From Candidatus Latescibacterota bacterium (GTDB lineage: Bacteria > Latescibacterota > UBA2968): a stretch of 64,000 nt of DNA. How positions within the stretch are numbered: the stretch's first letter is position 1; every line of letters starts with the position of its first letter. The position numbers were made by a program, and so were the translations under genes. Below the pieces are notes generated by a model. It saw only the letters and a program-made list of their open reading frames with translations, was not told the DNA's origin and did not search any database. Below are positions 2,625 to 7,677 of the stretch, piece after piece. The stretch spans positions 1,312,001 through 1,376,000 of the forward strand of contig OZ241986.1 of NCBI GenBank assembly GCA_965204375.1, in the 5' to 3' direction.

Positions 2625-2648
2625 GGGGATTATGTAGAATAGTGTCCA
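2617..2648 (+). repeat. Left TSD (2617-2624) plus left TIR (2625-2648)
   Basis: gaaaaaat|ggggattatgtagaatagtgtcca read directly. Confidence 0.95.
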
Positions 2649-2661
2649 TAAGAAAAACGCC

Positions 2662-2886
2662 TTAATTGTCGCACTGTATTCCCAATTTGCTGACAATGCA
2701 GTTATAGCATTCTCGCGCTTTGAGTATGTCGTCAAAGATGAAGACTTTTTTCTCTCTCTCTGATTTGGGCGTGAAGTTGATAACAACCGATTCGCCATCC
2801 AATGTTATCTCGTCTAACTCATGAGAGTCAATGCGAAATACTTCTTCTTTTGTCTCGCTGATTTTCACACGTATCAAGTTTCCCAT
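2662..2886 (-). CDS. Small hypothetical passenger protein (74 aa)
   Basis: ATG 2886 with AGGAGA RBS; divergent from the transposase; pattern similar to the 4058-4306 product. Confidence 0.6.
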   Translation of the reverse strand: MGNLIRVKISETKEEVFRIDSHELDEITLDGESVVINFTPKSEREKKVFIFDDILKARECYNCIVSKLGIQCDN

Positions 2887-2933
2887 CGTTGTTTCTCCTG
2901 TAAAAAATACTGAACAAATGTATAGAAAATTGC

Positions 2934-2962
2934 TTGATTTCAAGGGTTTATAATGCTATCTT
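2934..2962 (+). promoter_or_regulatory. Putative sigma70 promoter of the transposase
   Basis: TTGATT-N17-TATCTT with a TGn extension, ~180 nt upstream of ATG 3145. Confidence 0.5.
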
Positions 2963-2998
2963 AATGGCAGATATAAACCCTTATTTTTGTAGGGGGAT

Positions 2999-3084
2999 AA
3001 AAAAAAGAAGGCTTGCGCTTTTGGGAGCGCAAGCCTCTAAGTGGAGAAACAGGCAAATCGTCGAACCTCCCGTATTCCTCGCAC
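2999..3084 (-). ncRNA. Putative ~85-nt antisense RNA to the transposase leader
   Basis: Minus-strand TTGTCT(3119-3114)-N17-TATCTT(3096-3091); perfect 11-bp hairpin 3009-3036 followed by a U-tract on the minus strand. Confidence 0.5.
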
Positions 3085-3144
3085 AATTCAAAGATAAGGT
3101 GTGTTGAGCCAAAAGACAACATCTTTTTTTTGTTGAGGTGTGCC

Positions 3145-4083
3145 ATGGCTACCAATGCACCAGGCATGCATTTCCGTAAGGGCATGTCTCTCATCCAGCT
3201 ATTCAAGATGTTCCCGGATGATGAGACAGCCGAGAAGTGGTTTATTCACACGCGCTGGCCGGATGGTATCGCTTGCCCGCGATGTGGATCCGTCAACGTT
3301 CAGGAAAAGGCGATACACCCAACAATGCCTCACCGATGCAGAGACTGTCGTAGATATTTCTCTGTCAAGAAAGGCACAATGATGGAATGTTCAAATGTAG
3401 GTTATCAAATATGGATAATCGCCATTTACCTCTGGACAACAAACCTGAAAGGTGTTTCGTCCATGCACCTGCACCGCGATGTAGATGTGACACAGAGAAC
3501 CGCATGGTTTCTTCTGCACCGGATCAGACACGCTATGACGCCTGAACAGGTCGAACTGTTTGACGGCACAGTAGAGGTCGATGAGACGTATGTCGGAGGG
3601 AAGGAAGGGAATAAGCACGCGAAAGACAAACTGCGCTTAGGGGGCACGGCGGGCAAAACGCCAGTCGTTGGTGCGAAGAATAGAGAAACCAAACAGGTGC
3701 AGGCAGAAGTGTTTGAGGATGTAGATGAAGATGCGATAAATCAGTTTATTGAGGATTGTGTTGAAAAAGGCGCGACCGTGTACACAGACGGGTCACACGT
3801 CTATAACGCTCTGGAGGGGTATGAACACGATAAAGTGATTCACTCACGCGGTGAATATGTGAGAGGAGATGTATCAACAAACGGGATCGAGTCTTTTTGG
3901 TCGATGATAAAACGCGCAATCATGGGGGTGTATCACAAAATCAGCAAAAAACACTTGGGGAAGTATGTCGCTGAGTTTGTGGCACGGCAAAATATGAGAC
4001 CGCGAGATACCATCGACCAAATGAAACTGATTGCGGAATGCTTTGAAGGGAAAAGGCTTAGGTATTGTGAGTTGGTTTCATAG
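3145..4083 (+). CDS. tnp: IS1595-family transposase (Zn ribbon + DDE)
   Basis: CPRCGS...CRDC zinc ribbon; VEVDETY, YTDG, NGIESFWSMIK and EFVARQN motifs; RBS GAGGTG before ATG 3145. Confidence 0.95.
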   Translation: MATNAPGMHFRKGMSLIQLFKMFPDDETAEKWFIHTRWPDGIACPRCGSVNVQEKAIHPTMPHRCRDCRRYFSVKKGTMMECSNVGYQIWIIAIYLWTTNLKGVSSMHLHRDVDVTQRTAWFLLHRIRHAMTPEQVELFDGTVEVDETYVGGKEGNKHAKDKLRLGGTAGKTPVVGAKNRETKQVQAEVFEDVDEDAINQFIEDCVEKGATVYTDGSHVYNALEGYEHDKVIHSRGEYVRGDVSTNGIESFWSMIKRAIMGVYHKISKKHLGKYVAEFVARQNMRPRDTIDQMKLIAECFEGKRLRYCELVS

Positions 4084-4306
4084 CATCAAAGTTAAAGCGA
4101 TGGGCAAGTTTCGTGAATTGGCGTTTGGCCTCTTCGAGTAAATCAAACTCAAAGTGTTCTTTTTCTCCATTTGGTGAATGAAACTCAATCTCAACAGGAA
4201 AGCCTTCCTTGTTCCAGTCTATATCAATGTGTATAGAGAACACATGATCAAGGTAAACTATCACGAATTTTCCATCTGAGTTTTCTCCGGAAATAAAATT
4301 TTCCAT
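4058..4306 (-). CDS. Small hypothetical passenger protein (82 aa)
   Basis: AGGAGG RBS; 3' end overlaps the transposase 3' end. Confidence 0.65.
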   Translation of the reverse strand: MENFISGENSDGKFVIVYLDHVFSIHIDIDWNKEGFPVEIEFHSPNGEKEHFEFDLLEEAKRQFTKLAHRFNFDAMKPTHNT

Positions 4307-4320
4307 GGCAAAAGCCTCCT

Positions 4321-4482
4321 TTAATTTATCCTTATCTCAATTTCTGGTTGTTGCACCCAATAGACCCATATTGGACTTGTAGATGCAGGGCCACCATGTC
4401 GATTTACCTGGTTAGAATTGTCTGGTTGCTTGTCCGGCGGATTTGAGTTGACGGGTATATCTAACTCTGATATTTTATTCAC
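4321..4482 (-). CDS. 53-aa Pro/Asn-rich peptide (not in ORF track)
   Basis: GTG start after AAGGAG; MNKISELDIPVNSNPPDKQPDNSNQ...; first 25 aa are 21/25 identical to the 7008-7268 product, with mostly synonymous differences. Confidence 0.6.
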   Translation of the reverse strand: MNKISELDIPVNSNPPDKQPDNSNQVNRHGGPASTSPIWVYWVQQPEIEIRIN

Positions 4483-4559
4483 GGCTTTTCTCCTTTTTTA
4501 CGGGGGAGGAAGGTGGTATTTTATTCATGAGGCCGTGTTTACCGCACGGCCTTTTTAAT

Positions 4560-4706
4560 TTACCTAAACAGGCTTGCAAGCGCAACCCCGAAAATGACGA
4601 GAAGAACACCACTCATAACAGCCATACGACGGTTGTGTATTTTCTCCTCGTGGTCCAGTTTTTGTTGCCACTGTTCTCGGTATTCTTTCCACTCCTCGTC
4701 TGTCAT
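4560..4706 (-). CDS. 48-aa charged-helix plus C-terminal TM peptide (not in ORF track)
   Basis: ATGA overlap with the protease stop; MTDEEWKEYREQWQQKLDHEEKIHNRRMAVMSGVLLVIFGVALASLFR. Confidence 0.6.
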   Translation of the reverse strand: MTDEEWKEYREQWQQKLDHEEKIHNRRMAVMSGVLLVIFGVALASLFR

Positions 4707-5653
4707 GGCGCACCGTCCACAACAATGTGTATATGCGTGTGGTCATGCACATGCTTGAAAACTGGTTGGCCGATTGCGGGCTTTGTCAATACCGGATGGG
4801 GCATCTGTGCTTTGTTGTAGTCCACTACATGTCCCAAATCGTGCAACATACCGAGCGTAACTTTGCTGATGACGCTTTGTGGGGCTACGTATGGTTGCAT
4901 TATATCCCACATCATTTCGGGATACTTCCAGTGTGTGGTCTCCATTTCCATTGGAATACGCAAATCAGGAATAGCGAAAGAAAGTTTTTCGCCCAAATGG
5001 TAAAGGACTTCTCTATACCCCTGGACGCCGTGTGCCCCACTGTAATACTTTACACTGGATACCACTTCCAAATATTCTTTGATATACACGTCAGAAAAGC
5101 CGAGTGCGTGTCCAATCTCGTGAAGGATTACTGCCCGTTTTTGTGCCTGTGTCAAAGTGTTCAGGTAGTCATACAGCCACACTTCAGCATAAAAGGGCAA
5201 CCCACCCATTGTCGGAGAACGGGCGACGGTAAGGTGCGTGGTCGCCACCGCGTTAGGATTTGTGGGCACTTTCCAAACAAACTTCACCAATAAATCATCC
5301 ACACGCGCCACTGGCGGAATGGCCGATATATGCGAATATGTAAAGGCCGGCATATCGGGCAACCCGCCTACAATCACGCCTTCCCACTGATCCCTCGCCC
5401 AAATTATGGCGTTGGATACTTCAAGCGGAAATGTACCCGGGTTGTCTAAATACACGCCAATATCAAAACGTTCTTGAGGAACAGGTACAGTCTGTGCTGA
5501 TTGCAAAGGCTCTGGCGTCTCATTCACCTGTACCTGTGTTGGCGCAGGCACTTTCGCACACGCCATGAGAACTGTGAGAATAAAACAAGTTGCCCCTAAT
5601 TGTAAAAGTGTGTAAATTGGACGCTTATTCCCGCCTGTGAGTATTGCACTCAT
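4703..5653 (-). CDS. Zinc metalloprotease, leishmanolysin (M8)-like, probable lipoprotein
   Basis: HEIGHALG, distal THW, Met-turn DIMQP, SKVTLGMLHDLG; hydrophobic signal ending LMAC. Confidence 0.75.
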   Translation of the reverse strand: MSAILTGGNKRPIYTLLQLGATCFILTVLMACAKVPAPTQVQVNETPEPLQSAQTVPVPQERFDIGVYLDNPGTFPLEVSNAIIWARDQWEGVIVGGLPDMPAFTYSHISAIPPVARVDDLLVKFVWKVPTNPNAVATTHLTVARSPTMGGLPFYAEVWLYDYLNTLTQAQKRAVILHEIGHALGFSDVYIKEYLEVVSSVKYYSGAHGVQGYREVLYHLGEKLSFAIPDLRIPMEMETTHWKYPEMMWDIMQPYVAPQSVISKVTLGMLHDLGHVVDYNKAQMPHPVLTKPAIGQPVFKHVHDHTHIHIVVDGAP

Positions 5654-5777
5654 AGAGAAACCCTCTCTGTGTGTGGTGATATTCCGGCGGATTGCCGTGT
5701 GCTGCTTCTCCCGGACTGCGACCAACAGGTAACGGGGACAGCACACGGCGCACCTTATAGGGGTGATAAAATGAAAA

Positions 5778-5984
5778 CTACTGACCGGATTCTTTTTTTA
5801 GCTCTTGAATGGCCCCAAGAACCCCATTTACCAAATCCATTGCGTCTTCCGGAGACACCCGATAGACATGAAAACCGGGAATTGTTTTTTGATCTAAGTC
5901 TTCCGATATGGCAATGTCCAGCATCTGCTTGTTGTGGACCAAATAAATCCTAAGTCCACCTTCTCCAACTGGTTCTTGTTGCAT
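5778..5984 (-). CDS. Small hypothetical protein (68 aa), first gene after RNA leader copy 1
   Basis: ATG 5984 preceded by GGAAGG; MQQEPVGEGGLRIYLVHNKQ... Confidence 0.55.
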   Translation of the reverse strand: MQQEPVGEGGLRIYLVHNKQMLDIAISEDLDQKTIPGFHVYRVSPEDAMDLVNGVLGAIQELKKESGQ

Positions 5985-6322
5985 AAAAATTATCCTTCCC
6001 CATAAAAAATTCCCGCAGTTATCTGGCGGTGGTGTTCCGCGCTCCGTTATGGAGCCGGGCAGAGATACCACCTCACGCAGACATACTGCGGGAAAAGTCC
6101 TACCTATTTGCCAAGATCGGGTAGCTAATCCGTTCTTTGTAGGTTGGCTATTCTATTCAGTAGGCTACCCGACGAAGCGGGTCTGCCGTAAGGTGGTATC
6201 AAAAAGAAAGCCCTGACGGTTCCATCAAACTGTTGATGAAGCGTCAGGGCTTCGAGTTTGTCCGTCAGGGCTAAAGCGATATTCGTAATGTAAGACAAAA
6301 TTATCAACAATCTGATGGATGC
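5985..6322 (-). ncRNA. Structured RNA leader, copy 1
   Basis: Leader 6303-6319 complementary to 6221-6237; hairpin 6209-6272 plus U-tract; closed multi-stem domain 6064-6200; G-U pairs work only on the minus strand; homologous to copy 2. Confidence 0.75.
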
Positions 6323-6326
6323 TGAT

Positions 6327-6354
6327 AATTTAACTTATCTAACCTGAGTGTCAA
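6327..6354 (-). promoter_or_regulatory. Putative sigma70 promoter, copy 1
   Basis: TTGACA-N16-TAAATT, positionally conserved with copy 2. Confidence 0.65.
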
Positions 6355-6377
6355 GATTTTTTGTATTTTATCTCCGG

Positions 6378-6397
6378 CACTATTCTACATAATCCCC
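6378..6397 (-). repeat. Internal third TIR (right-end orientation)
   Basis: cactattctacataatcccc, identical to the outer 20 bp of the right TIR. Confidence 0.9.
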
Positions 6398-6481
6398 TTC
6401 GATGGTCTGTGCAGACGCCATTGTTTTGTAAATATAGTCTTTTAATTCTTCTATTTCACGTTCAATATCGTATCTCTGCAT
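6398..6481 (-). pseudogene. 5' part of a small gene cut by the internal TIR
   Basis: MQRYDIEREIEELKDYIYKTMASAQTIE runs straight into the TIR (reads GDYVE* inside it); same position relative to RNA copy 2 as 5984 is to copy 1. Confidence 0.6.
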
Positions 6482-6838
6482 AAAAAAATCCGCAATAATC
6501 TGGTGAGTGGGTGCGACACCTTACATATTCGTGCAAGGTGTCGGGCAGAAGCACCACTTACGCAGACATACTGCGGAAACGTCCCTACTTATTCGTCCAG
6601 ACCGGGGAGCGACCCCAACCTTTTTGACAGACTATTGTATTGGGTAGGATACCCGACGAATCGGGCTGCCTAAGCGGTGCTATTTATTTTTCACACATAA
6701 AAAGCCCCGGCGGTTCCGTCAAACTGCTGATGAGGATTCAGAAAAAATCCTCACAGTTTGTCCGCCAGGGCTTTGTAAAAAAAGCGCATTCAAAATAGAG
6801 AAAAGATCAAACAAGCTTATCAGCAGTTTGACGGATGC
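6482..6838 (-). ncRNA. Structured RNA leader, copy 2
   Basis: Leader 6819-6835 perfectly complementary to 6715-6731; hairpin 6701-6774 plus U-tract; domain 6550-6681 with CCCGA-UUCG-UCGGG. Confidence 0.75.
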
Positions 6839-6842
6839 GTAT

Positions 6843-6870
6843 AATGTAACCTTTCAGAGATAGATGTCAA
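6843..6870 (-). promoter_or_regulatory. Putative sigma70 promoter, copy 2
   Basis: TTGACA-N16-TACATT. Confidence 0.65.
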
Positions 6871-7007
6871 GGTTTAATCCTCATAATACTCAAATTTTCG
6901 GTTGCCCATCACAGAGTAGTTTGGTAAATTAAAAGCCGTGCAGTGGAGAAAGCCACCACACGGCAATTGCGATTTTCACCCCAACCTTCCAAGAAAGGGG
7001 AAAAAGC

Positions 7008-7268
7008 GTGAACAAGATACCAGAACTGCATATACCAGTCAACCCAAATCCACCGGACAAACCGCCAGACAATTCTAACCAAGATGGGTATTTTTCATGT
7101 GTAAAAGAAAAGAAAGGGGGTGATCTCTCAATGAACAAAACAATACGCATCACGCTCATGATCGTGGTTGTCTTTGTCTGCACACTCTTTTGGACGAAAA
7201 CGATTGATAATCTCGAAGCAGGAGTTATCATCGGTAAATCCAAAATTGGCAAAGCTACACTGAGATAA
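7008..7268 (+). CDS. 86-aa protein: Pro/Asn-rich N-module plus TM segment; internal in-frame start at 7131 (45 aa)
   Basis: GTG after AAAGGGG; second RBS AAGGGGGTGAT before ATG 7131; hydrophobic ITLMIVVVFVCTLFW. Confidence 0.55.
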   Translation: MNKIPELHIPVNPNPPDKPPDNSNQDGYFSCVKEKKGGDLSMNKTIRITLMIVVVFVCTLFWTKTIDNLEAGVIIGKSKIGKATLR

Positions 7269-7317
7269 TCACACCCCTCTCCCCGTGTTGATCGACATTC
7301 CCGGCGTCAACACTATT

Positions 7318-7349
7318 TGGACACTATTCTACATAATCCCCGAAAAAAT
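7318..7349 (-). repeat. Right TIR (7318-7341) plus TSD (7342-7349)
   Basis: tggacactattctacataatcccc|gaaaaaat. Confidence 0.95.
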
Positions 7350-7677
7350 GGGTGAGGAGGTAACGGTGCTTCTCTTCCGCACGGTGAGGGAGTTGCTGAT
7401 CAATGTCGTCAAGCACGCCCGGGCACACAGCGTGAGGGTGTCGATCCGAAAAGATGGTAGCCGTATAAGGATTGAGGTCGAAGATGACGGGGTCGGATTT
7501 GACACTTCGCAAATCGATTTTGGCCGCACACCCGGCAAGGGGGGATTTGGTTTCTTCAGCATCCGGGAACGTCTAAATTTTTTGGGGGGAAATTTTCAAG
7601 TCGAATCCGAACCCGGCCAGGGCACCCGGGCCGTCCTGACGGCACCGCTGAAGCAGAATGGGCACCCCGGGACGTAA
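7350..7677 (+). pseudogene. Histidine kinase C-terminal HATPase_c part
   Basis: RELLINVVKHA, EDDGVGFD, GGFGFFSIRER and ESEPGQGT boxes; rejoins in frame with 1213-2624. Confidence 0.9.

Follow-up and report, generated by a model that had tools for sequence, protein, structure and literature searches.

A transposon-borne family of leader RNAs and its two-tier form in an IS1595-family element of a Latescibacterota bacterium

A stretch of 64,000 nucleotides (nt) from a Candidatus Latescibacterota bacterium (GenBank assembly GCA_965204375.1, contig OZ241986.1, positions 1,312,001 to 1,376,000; hereafter the window, numbered from its first letter) harbors an IS1595-family transposon in which two diverged copies of a structured segment each precede a small open reading frame (ORF). 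What kind of RNA do these segments specify, and how would it act on the genes that it precedes? A prediction made from the letters alone (the original prediction) had proposed a duplicated RNA control module, either akin to the phage antisense RNAs P1 c4 and P4 CI or a new two-tier RNA switch. We report here that the ~137-nt core of each copy, termed tier 2, is a new, widespread, transposon-borne leader RNA family, a finding larger in scope than a sequence-only note could show. Taking all the evidence together, we consider it probable that the two copies are paralogous cargo leaders that became joined, each consisting of two regulatory units in series, namely an attenuator (unit 1, tier 1) followed by a riboswitch-like ON switch (unit 2).

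Two leader modules and the RNA family at their core

The two copies, module A (6354-5985) and module B (6870-6482), lie on the minus strand and align over 446 columns with a mean column identity of 79%, with direct repeats of 67 nt (D1, 73%), 34 nt (D2, 85%) and 18 nt (D5, 94%). Both follow the same order: promoter, long hairpin with a U-tract, closed domain of ~137 nt, short hairpin, back-pairing box, U-run and ATG. The promoters, TTGACA-16-TAAATT in module A (6327-6354) and TTGACA-16-TACATT in module B (6843-6870), each match 10 of 12 consensus positions and are the top-scoring sites of a promoter scan. The tier-2 domain occupies 6064-6200 in module A, where the arms of its closing helix P1 form an inverted repeat (6064-6077 and 6187-6200), and 6547-6683 in module B. 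Hairpin P5 follows at 6037-6058 in A, 3' of a conserved tail, and at 6514-6543 in B (CGACACC...GGUGUCG), where a G-to-A change in the 5' arm is matched by a change in the 3' arm. The putative switch box comes last, at 6001-6035 in A (with a U-run at 6009-6004 and a conserved ATG at 6003-6001) and at 6482-6513 in B (with a U-run at 6488-6482). Folds of the whole modules stand out from those of shuffled sequences (z -6.14 and -8.32 for the two modules), and P1 differs in sequence between A and B while its pairing is kept.

This anatomy agrees with the original prediction in the following parts: two minus-strand copies with their promoters, long hairpins with U-tracts, a closed multi-stem domain (located at 6200-6064 and 6683-6547), a short hairpin and, before the ATG, a box whose partner in minimum free energy (MFE) folds is the 3' part of the domain. 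Its more general claim of a strand-specific structured RNA control module 5' of cargo genes also held, the module being made of two tiers that each end in a terminator-type hairpin.

A BLAST search of the source genome revealed further copies of the ~137-nt domain that lack tier 1 and follow a promoter of their own. We built a covariance model, R1, from five copies using unambiguous helices only. R1 scores the domain at 123.9 bits in module A (E 2.9e-33) and at 140.3 bits in module B (E 3.3e-38), finds 8 copies in the source genome, and has matches in 50 of 101 related genomes distributed over 9 of 29 genera, with up to 13 copies per genome. A pattern of the conserved core was found in at least 120 stretches of a one-genome-per-species collection and in 116 stretches of 241 million metagenome records; it had no match in 2.9 million viral contigs, and an alphaproteobacterial member had none in a plasmid collection. 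Searches against Rfam 15 at gathering thresholds gave no match in the 64-kb window. At E values up to 10, positions 5700-7100 gave six chance-level matches, of which MicC scored highest with 19.2 bits (threshold 90), and 16 diverse family loci (114,202 bases) returned three tRNA matches only, so that no Rfam family fits, as had been surmised. A literature search, in which subscription journals were thinly covered, retrieved no description of the tier-2 RNA or of an RNA leader in IS1595 elements. The domain, once proposed as a ~135-nt element-specific antisense RNA, instead belongs to a widespread family of 5' leaders, most of which lack tier 1 and start at their own promoter.

The titles of the 80 collection records listed, nearly all metagenome-assembled genomes (MAGs) and several of them single-chromosome assemblies, span at least nine phylum-level groups: Alphaproteobacteria (25 records), Latescibacterota (15), Gammaproteobacteria (11), Binatia (10), Gemmatimonadota (8), Acidobacteriota (5), Candidatus Multivorans (2), and Nitrospirales, Rhodothermales and Opitutales (one each), in addition to one title without a group name. 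Relatives of the same genus share a domain subtype with records titled Latescibacterota. Among the metagenome matches, the 80 listed of 116 carry 15 record-name prefixes, 28 coming from one prefix, and the close relatives of module A that were aligned come from contigs of sponge-metagenome runs (three runs, two studies) and of a coral metagenome (one run). Part of PMC7883664 lists SB06xx_bin names under Entoporibacteria, and part of PMC10469786 treats sponges and a public sponge MAG source; these sections of the two papers give a weak pointer to the habitat of the named records. One record titled as a Ruegeria atlantica strain, which is not a MAG, carries a shortened variant (L070, 5969-6101, 44.8 bits) that lacks the inner helix and apical hairpin of arm P3, and its presence in this strain record would make bench tests feasible.

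The domain folds as a three-way junction composed of the long helix P1 (12 modelled pairs and an inner extension), the short hairpin P2 (CCCG...CGGG in 149 of 209 copies) and the arm P3, which features a conserved internal loop of two opposed GAAUA strands, an inner helix and an apical hairpin. In a pattern-chosen cross-phylum set of 83 sequences aligned to R1, 89.4% of the cells are paired, compared with 67.6% after shuffling and 35-47% after sliding, and 28 of 30 pairs have changed on both sides; P1 covaries at all 12 of its pairs. The 38 sequences drawn from whole genomes of the class, not chosen by pattern, behave alike, with 90.5% of cells paired (71.6% shuffled, 31-43% slid) and 25 of 30 pairs changed on both sides. 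The compensatory changes announced by the original prediction are thus present in P1, in both alignments and in the box 1 duplexes of tier 1 described below; in larger alignments, such as it had named as a check, ~90% of cells are paired against 68-72% for shuffled ones. G-U cells outnumber A-C cells on the modelled strand in the two sets (256:97 and 124:40, about 2.6-3 to 1), in support of an RNA structure on the minus strand, as had been proposed for the window.

Conservation extends beyond the pairs. About half of the positions are conserved outside helices, including both strands of the internal loop, and P1 is followed by a conserved tail, A-C-(U/G)-GCC-CGGCACC, and then by hairpin P5 in 107 of 112 distinct members according to a fold-based count. 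An earlier test with a fixed 7-mer P5 arm (29 of 106, against 5 in the control) was rejected because the pattern also caught the tail CAACGGC in 22 cases. Two further candidates were discarded: an extension of P2 beyond CCCG:CGGG, which showed no covariation (63 of 149 and 55 of 149 paired), and a long-range GUCGGG-CCCGCA pairing outside the core proposed by RNAalifold, whose CCCGCA partner is missing in most proteobacterial members. A pseudoknot between the invariant GUCGGGU and the invariant GCCCGGC of the tail, with 7-8 pairs including G-U, is offered as an idea only: these segments hardly vary, which leaves covariation silent on it, and the 5-nt linker looks too short once P1 has formed.

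The apical loop of P3 (minus strand, 6126-6112 in A and 6608-6596 in B) shows a peculiar mode of variation. Among 220 distinct sequences, the loop reads UAGCU, self-complementary as UAGCUA, in 106 and UCGCU in 26, the latter being the non-palindromic form seen in module B, while the rarer loops are mostly palindromes of 6-8 nt: GUAGCUAC (15), GUCAUGAC (7), UGGCCA (5), UGAUCA (5), UAAUUA and UUGCAA. Self-complementarity kept through sequence change suggests loop-loop dimers, a suggestion that UCGCU does not fit.

Genomic context of the family and its host transposon

A sigma-70-type promoter (at least 9 of 12 consensus positions) lies within 55 nt upstream of 43 of the 112 distinct copies, compared with 7 of 560 control windows, and in 39 of these 43 the -10 box ends 5-6 nt before P1. 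Such a fixed distance argues that the RNA begins with P1, which we take as the predicted start. Downstream, an ORF with a Shine-Dalgarno (SD) sequence follows within 160 nt in 62 distinct cases. An N-terminal hydrophobic segment was detected in 46 of these 62 proteins against 63 of 539 control ORFs, and a lipobox-like motif in 15 of 62 against 10 of 539, the controls being other long ORFs of the same loci, non-genes included, and the related sequences not being independent. Pfam families are few and varied: Peptidase_M8 in three proteins, leucine-rich repeats (LRR), CsgG and OMP barrel in two each, and singletons such as RTX, ankyrin, DUF7424, DUF1232 and MCP, most of the 62 proteins having no family at all. 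The target genes point to no single ligand or pathway.

For 58 of 212 distinct domain cores, the short locus that contains the core also encodes a transposase of the IS1595 family, in two main arrangements, either downstream and convergent as in the window (42 cases) or upstream on the same strand (14 cases; 2 other). Over five whole genomes, 16 of 44 domain copies lie less than 3 kb from a transposase gene (3 of 8, 0 of 7, 3 of 9, 6 of 7 and 4 of 13, respectively). The domain is always oriented toward the cargo gene, irrespective of the orientation of the transposase. In L071, the whole element sits between clean 34-nt inverted repeats, the only clean pair among six other loci checked. The proximity of the transposase and its recurrent arrangements identify leader and cargo as a passenger cassette of the IS1595 family that also survives alone. 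Two of these loci deserve a separate mention. In L071, a ~190-nt region between the inverted repeat and the leader promoter (5384-5571) has a 16-nt closing stem and several inner hairpins, and its sequence is unrelated to tier 1. In L038 (G058 C2, ~4.593 Mb), an IS1595 transposase gene, represented by its N-terminal part, takes the place of the cargo gene and follows the domain directly, at 181 nt and on the same strand; genome G058 has 43 transposase matches.

Could the domain simply be a constitutive 5' structure that stabilizes the transcript or helps its translation, or else a feature useful to the transposon itself, as RNA or as DNA, that travels with the cargo for this reason? A long helix exactly at the predicted 5' end of the transcript is what 5' stabilizers display, within IS1595-family elements the domain keeps to the cargo region, in one of two fixed arrangements, and the family-wide test for a switch helix, reported below, is weak. 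The conservation outside helices, internal-loop strands included, nevertheless exceeds what a stabilizer needs; the alternative folds are nearly iso-energetic and end in U-runs or cover the SD sequence and AUG; the domain faces the cargo gene whatever the orientation of the transposase; and the excess of G-U over A-C cells speaks against a role at the DNA level. We hold such a non-switching role to be improbable.

In the window, the transposon spans 2625-7341 (4717 bp) and is inserted into a histidine-kinase gene, whose two halves form the flanks (HisKA_3 within 1213-2634, HATPase_c within 7285-7674) and which reads through across the target duplication. The left terminal inverted repeat (2625-2648, plus strand, 24 nt) is 100% complementary to the right one (7318-7341, minus strand), and an 8-bp target-site duplication, GAAAAAAT, can be read on both sides (2617-2624 and 7342-7349), 8 bp being the usual length in the IS1595 family. 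The transposase gene (3148-4083, plus strand) encodes an N-terminal zinc ribbon (Zn_ribbon_IS1595, PF12760, E 7.6e-6) and a DDE_Tnp_IS1595 domain (PF12762, E 1.1e-38), and matches NCBIfam NF033547 at 185.4 bits against a cut-off of 75 (E 1.3e-54). The host had been correctly named as an IS1595 transposon: the transposase type with its zinc ribbon, the inverted repeats and the direct target duplication are all present.

The cargo genes run opposite to the transposase and comprise the small ORFs and a gene for a zinc metalloprotease-like protein. The first cargo ORF 3' of module A (5778-5984, minus strand, 68 amino acids) has a GGAAGGA ribosome-binding site and matches no Pfam and no NCBIfam family. 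The metalloprotease-like product (4703-5653, minus strand) carries a HEIGH motif, is leishmanolysin-like (Peptidase_M8, E 8.7e-6, a score barely over the cut-off), and has an N-terminal hydrophobic segment with a cysteine. The 33-codon ORF 3' of module B (6380-6481, minus strand; no Pfam family) is a truncated cargo gene as judged from its position, since its last codons and stop lie inside an internal extra copy of the right inverted repeat.

This internal repeat (6397-6378, minus strand, 20 nt identical to 7322-7341) sits between modules A and B and bears on their origin. Over module A, contigs from four other metagenome runs show 90-99% similarity, which in every one of them breaks off at 6397-6399; this makes the inner repeat a true element end. 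A and B would then be cargo leaders from the right ends of two related elements. In this scenario, the two elements fused and were then transposed as one 4717-bp unit, the composite having moved as a whole because the target duplication flanks its outer ends. The original prediction of a duplicated module accordingly stands for the existence of two copies and falls for their origin, which is not a simple tandem duplication.

The same transposon also contains a second repeated unit, present in inverted orientation at 7042-6935 (minus strand) and 4448-4560 (plus strand), with similarity of 81% over 91 nt and 71% over 35 nt. Both copies have extended-TG promoter-like sites (TTGACT-17-TATCTT and TTGACG-17-TATTTT), a hairpin and an intrinsic terminator, and look like a candidate small RNA gene of ~75 nt.

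The promoter-proximal tier

Tier 1 lies between the promoter and the domain. Its principal feature is hairpin T, at 6201-6272 in module A (U-tract 6206-6201; 5' arm present in two copies) and at 6697-6771 in module B, U-tract included, which a second covariance model, R2, scores at 90.7 and 84.2 bits, respectively. T is a GC-rich hairpin with a U-tract between promoter and gene, as in intrinsic terminators; its MFE is -38.6 kcal/mol in A and -54.4 kcal/mol in B (z -5.56 and -5.50), and none of 200 shuffles was as good. Upstream of T, box 1 complements its inner 3' arm, over 17 contiguous pairs in A (6302-6320, minus strand) and over 20 nt at 95% in B (6817-6836 with 6715-6734, minus strand). 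The pairing was computed in four variants, with duplex energies of -24.6 (A), -32.5 (B), -31.5 (G016) and -17.2 kcal/mol (L003), compared with shuffled means of -8.8 to -13.1 kcal/mol (-10.5 for A and -13.1 for B). The box 1 sequences vary among these four variants and their complementarity to the T arm is retained, so that a pairing that would compete with T is a conserved feature of the tier. We read box 1 as a likely antiterminator that competes with T in cis, because the 2-4-nt link to the outer arm makes simultaneous pairings unlikely. No conserved ORF that could encode a leader peptide was found in tier 1.

The distribution of tier 1 is narrow. At 70 bits or above, R2 found it in G000 (four copies), G016 and G012 among the 101 genomes, all of one genus, the copy in G012 being a remnant with a truncated domain; BLAST over these 101 related genomes returned the source genome only, plus one marginal match of 27 nt. 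Many weaker R2 matches are terminator hairpins located 3' of the domain and not tier 1. One of these, in L307 (~1506-1560), is a T-like terminator with tier-1 arm sequences (AGCCCUGGCGG...CGUCAGGGCU followed by a U-run) 3' of the domain, and T therefore looks like a reusable module; L310, L317, L325 and L326 also have a weaker R2 match 3' of the domain, judged by position only. In a coral-metagenome contig (run X6), an A-like tier 1 (6369-6255) is followed, after 65 other letters, by a B-like domain (6689-6482), and the tiers therefore appear to recombine as modules.

A second IS1595-family transposon (L003, 2771-6165; G000 C1, ~3.52 Mb), bounded by 23-nt inverted repeats that are 96% alike and present in an identical copy (L004), has a tier-1 leader directly 5' of a gene for a 151-amino-acid membrane protein, and a terminator-type hairpin on the opposite strand past this gene. 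A 17-nt perfect complement links its 5' leader with the region past the gene. The small hairpin RNA predicted from this element shows a 14-of-14 match to box 1 of module B.

It is in tier 1 that the likeness to P1 c4 and P4 CI, proposed by the original prediction, must be judged. An antisense RNA of this type would be cut from the leader and would silence a toxic downstream gene through upstream and downstream sites, in an element-specific manner. Tier 1 does hold repeated short complementary boxes in a single leader (box 1, a*, a', b and b'), and the L003 hairpin, located on the opposite strand 3' of the gene with a promoter-like site, could be a separate small RNA. The analogy fits tier 1 only, and loosely. 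No C4, c4-a1b1 or related Rfam family was matched at E up to 10, the domain pattern is absent from the viral contigs and its context is non-viral, and most copies of the 137-nt domain lack tier 1 and have a promoter of their own. The cargo consists of varied exported proteins with no recognizable toxin, and box 1 lies at the 5' end and not at the ribosome-binding site. Element specificity fares no better: the terminator arm of A forms a better duplex with box 1 of B (-29.5 kcal/mol) than with its own box (-24.6 kcal/mol), the A and B boxes pair across modules as well as within them, and among the variants only the G016 box is orthogonal. We thus regard kinship with c4/CI, and the element-specific cross-talk proposed along with it, as very improbable.

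Proposed switch logic and known systems

How would tier 2 act on the gene that it precedes? The MFE folds of modules A and B and of copies c662 and c4304 pair the 3' part of the domain with the downstream box, and differ by 2-6 kcal/mol from the domain fold. In module A, the box-paired fold reaches -77.7 kcal/mol against -75.8 kcal/mol for the domain fold plus the rest; the corresponding energies in module B are -76.7 and -70.3 kcal/mol. In A, B and G016, a run of U6-U8 comes right after the alternative helix, immediately 5' of the gene. In c660 and c4304, a 9-10-nt perfect complement of the domain spans the SD/AUG region. Two nearly equal folds, of which one ends in a U-run or covers the SD/AUG, are what one would expect of an ON riboswitch that uses both a transcriptional and a translational platform.

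On the observed ground of anatomy, conservation, covariation and association with genes and with the transposon, we infer the function of the leader from its anatomy and context. Unit 2, consisting of the ~137-nt domain, the tail and P5, would work as a riboswitch-like ON switch. A putative ligand or factor would hold the P1 domain folded, leaving the downstream box free and letting transcription or translation proceed; without the signal, the 3' part of the domain would pair with the downstream box and turn the gene off. In modules A and B, the alternative helix would do so by ending in a U-run, as a terminator; in other copies it would cover the ribosome-binding site and AUG. In unit 1, the strong terminator T would be opposed by the 17-20-bp pairing between box 1 and the inner 3' arm. 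The covariation-backed domain, its 5' untranslated location and its orientation, identical to that of the gene, are features of riboswitches; switching itself, its direction and the ligand are suggested by the model.

Several points weigh against this scheme. The domain fold is already the MFE fold in c660 and G016, where switching is not obvious, and P1, with its 12 modelled pairs and extension, is unusually long. A search of sequencing runs for the stretch listed no RNA run, a result that bears neither way on expression. A family-wide duplex test of the domain 3' part against the downstream leader gave a median z of -0.89, with 18 of 63 cases below -2, and the 5' part used as a control scored much alike (medians of -26.1 and -27.8 kcal/mol), so that it is only in the class of the window's own copies that the switch helix is clear. 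The fitting of both alignments to R1 favors the structure of this model, the cross-phylum set was picked with a pattern that fixes several conserved nucleotides, and the phylum count could be inflated by binning errors in MAGs. As for tier 1, the case draws on few variants, and T may still form while box 1 is paired. Lastly, a metabolite riboswitch would usually precede genes of a common pathway, and the downstream genes here have none in common.

This last point invites the thought that the leader acts in cis by sensing a macromolecule or another RNA instead of a small molecule, such as a host or transposon protein, an RNA supplied in trans or a second leader copy contacted through the apical loop of P3, to set the expression of the cargo. 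Mixed target genes and a long P1 would suit such a sensor, the IS1595 transposase is the sole recurrent neighbor, the apical loop is self-complementary in many independent variants among the 220 distinct sequences, as expected for a kissing-loop dimer, and the L003 hairpin RNA fits box 1 of module B at every one of the 14 positions. On the other hand, UCGCU, which ranks second among the loops (26 of 220), lacks self-complementarity, 28 of 44 whole-genome copies have no transposase within 3 kb, and the spread across phyla favors a self-contained sensor. We therefore rate macromolecular sensing as rather unlikely, and retain the serial arrangement of an attenuator and a riboswitch-like ON switch as the preferred reading. 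A bolder version of the latter, which we put forward tentatively and with some doubt, would see the family as a transposon-borne new riboswitch class shared by sponge and coral symbionts of many phyla, in which a single shared signal, possibly host-derived, would switch on surface and secreted proteins (ankyrin, leucine-rich-repeat, RTX and leishmanolysin-like), maybe with dimerization through the apical loop.

Whatever the signal, the family has a clean anatomy and a clear, though unusual, regulon of exported proteins, and to our knowledge few new orphan riboswitch candidates now come to light that have hundreds of members and covary strongly. Its linkage to a transposon offers a direct route for a regulatory RNA and its cargo between phyla, in the form of a passenger expression cassette that is portable between hosts. 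The narrow range of records and habitats makes it a candidate handle on how symbionts sense their habitat, and the two-tier form found in the window would be a natural case of two attenuators in series.

Among known systems, riboswitches share with this family a conserved structured domain at the mRNA 5' end, a closing helix whose 3' strand has a predicted alternative partner downstream, the coexistence of terminator forms and forms covering the ribosome-binding site and AUG on one domain, and conserved unpaired nucleotides in junctions and loops. The present family differs from them by the lack of any Rfam match, a much longer P1, targets that share only export, carriage by a transposon and an occurrence in few sampled habitats. 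The nearest riboswitches in terms of regulon are the c-di-GMP-I (GEMM-I) leaders, which also precede genes for surface and secreted proteins. With P1 c4 and P4 CI the family has in common a leader that contains several short complementary boxes, and a hairpin RNA for which a 5' box could be the target; it differs in showing no sequence or structure match and in not being borne by phages, its box 1 is placed to compete with a terminator in cis, and its cargo includes no known anti-repressor or toxin.

Structured RNAs that control or guide a transposase are known from several insertion sequences (IS), including IS10 RNA-OUT, the IS200 5' untranslated region and art200, the omega RNA of IS605-type TnpB and the IS110 bridge RNA. 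Like them, the present RNA is non-coding, structured and travels with an insertion-sequence-type element; unlike them, it faces the cargo in either orientation and stands away from any transposase in 28 of 44 copies. RNAs that dimerize through kissing loops, such as the HIV-1 DIS hairpin and the guanidine-II riboswitch hairpins, resemble P3 in having apical loops with 4-8 self-complementary central nucleotides, kept as the sequence changes; the UCGCU loop (26 of 220) departs from this rule, and dimerization is here a prediction from sequence. IS1595-family elements with passenger genes form the 'plus' subgroups of ISfinder and share with the window's transposon a zinc-ribbon DDE transposase, short inverted repeats, an 8-bp duplication and extra genes toward one end; what sets the present elements apart from those described in the literature searched is a conserved structured leader 5' of the passenger genes.

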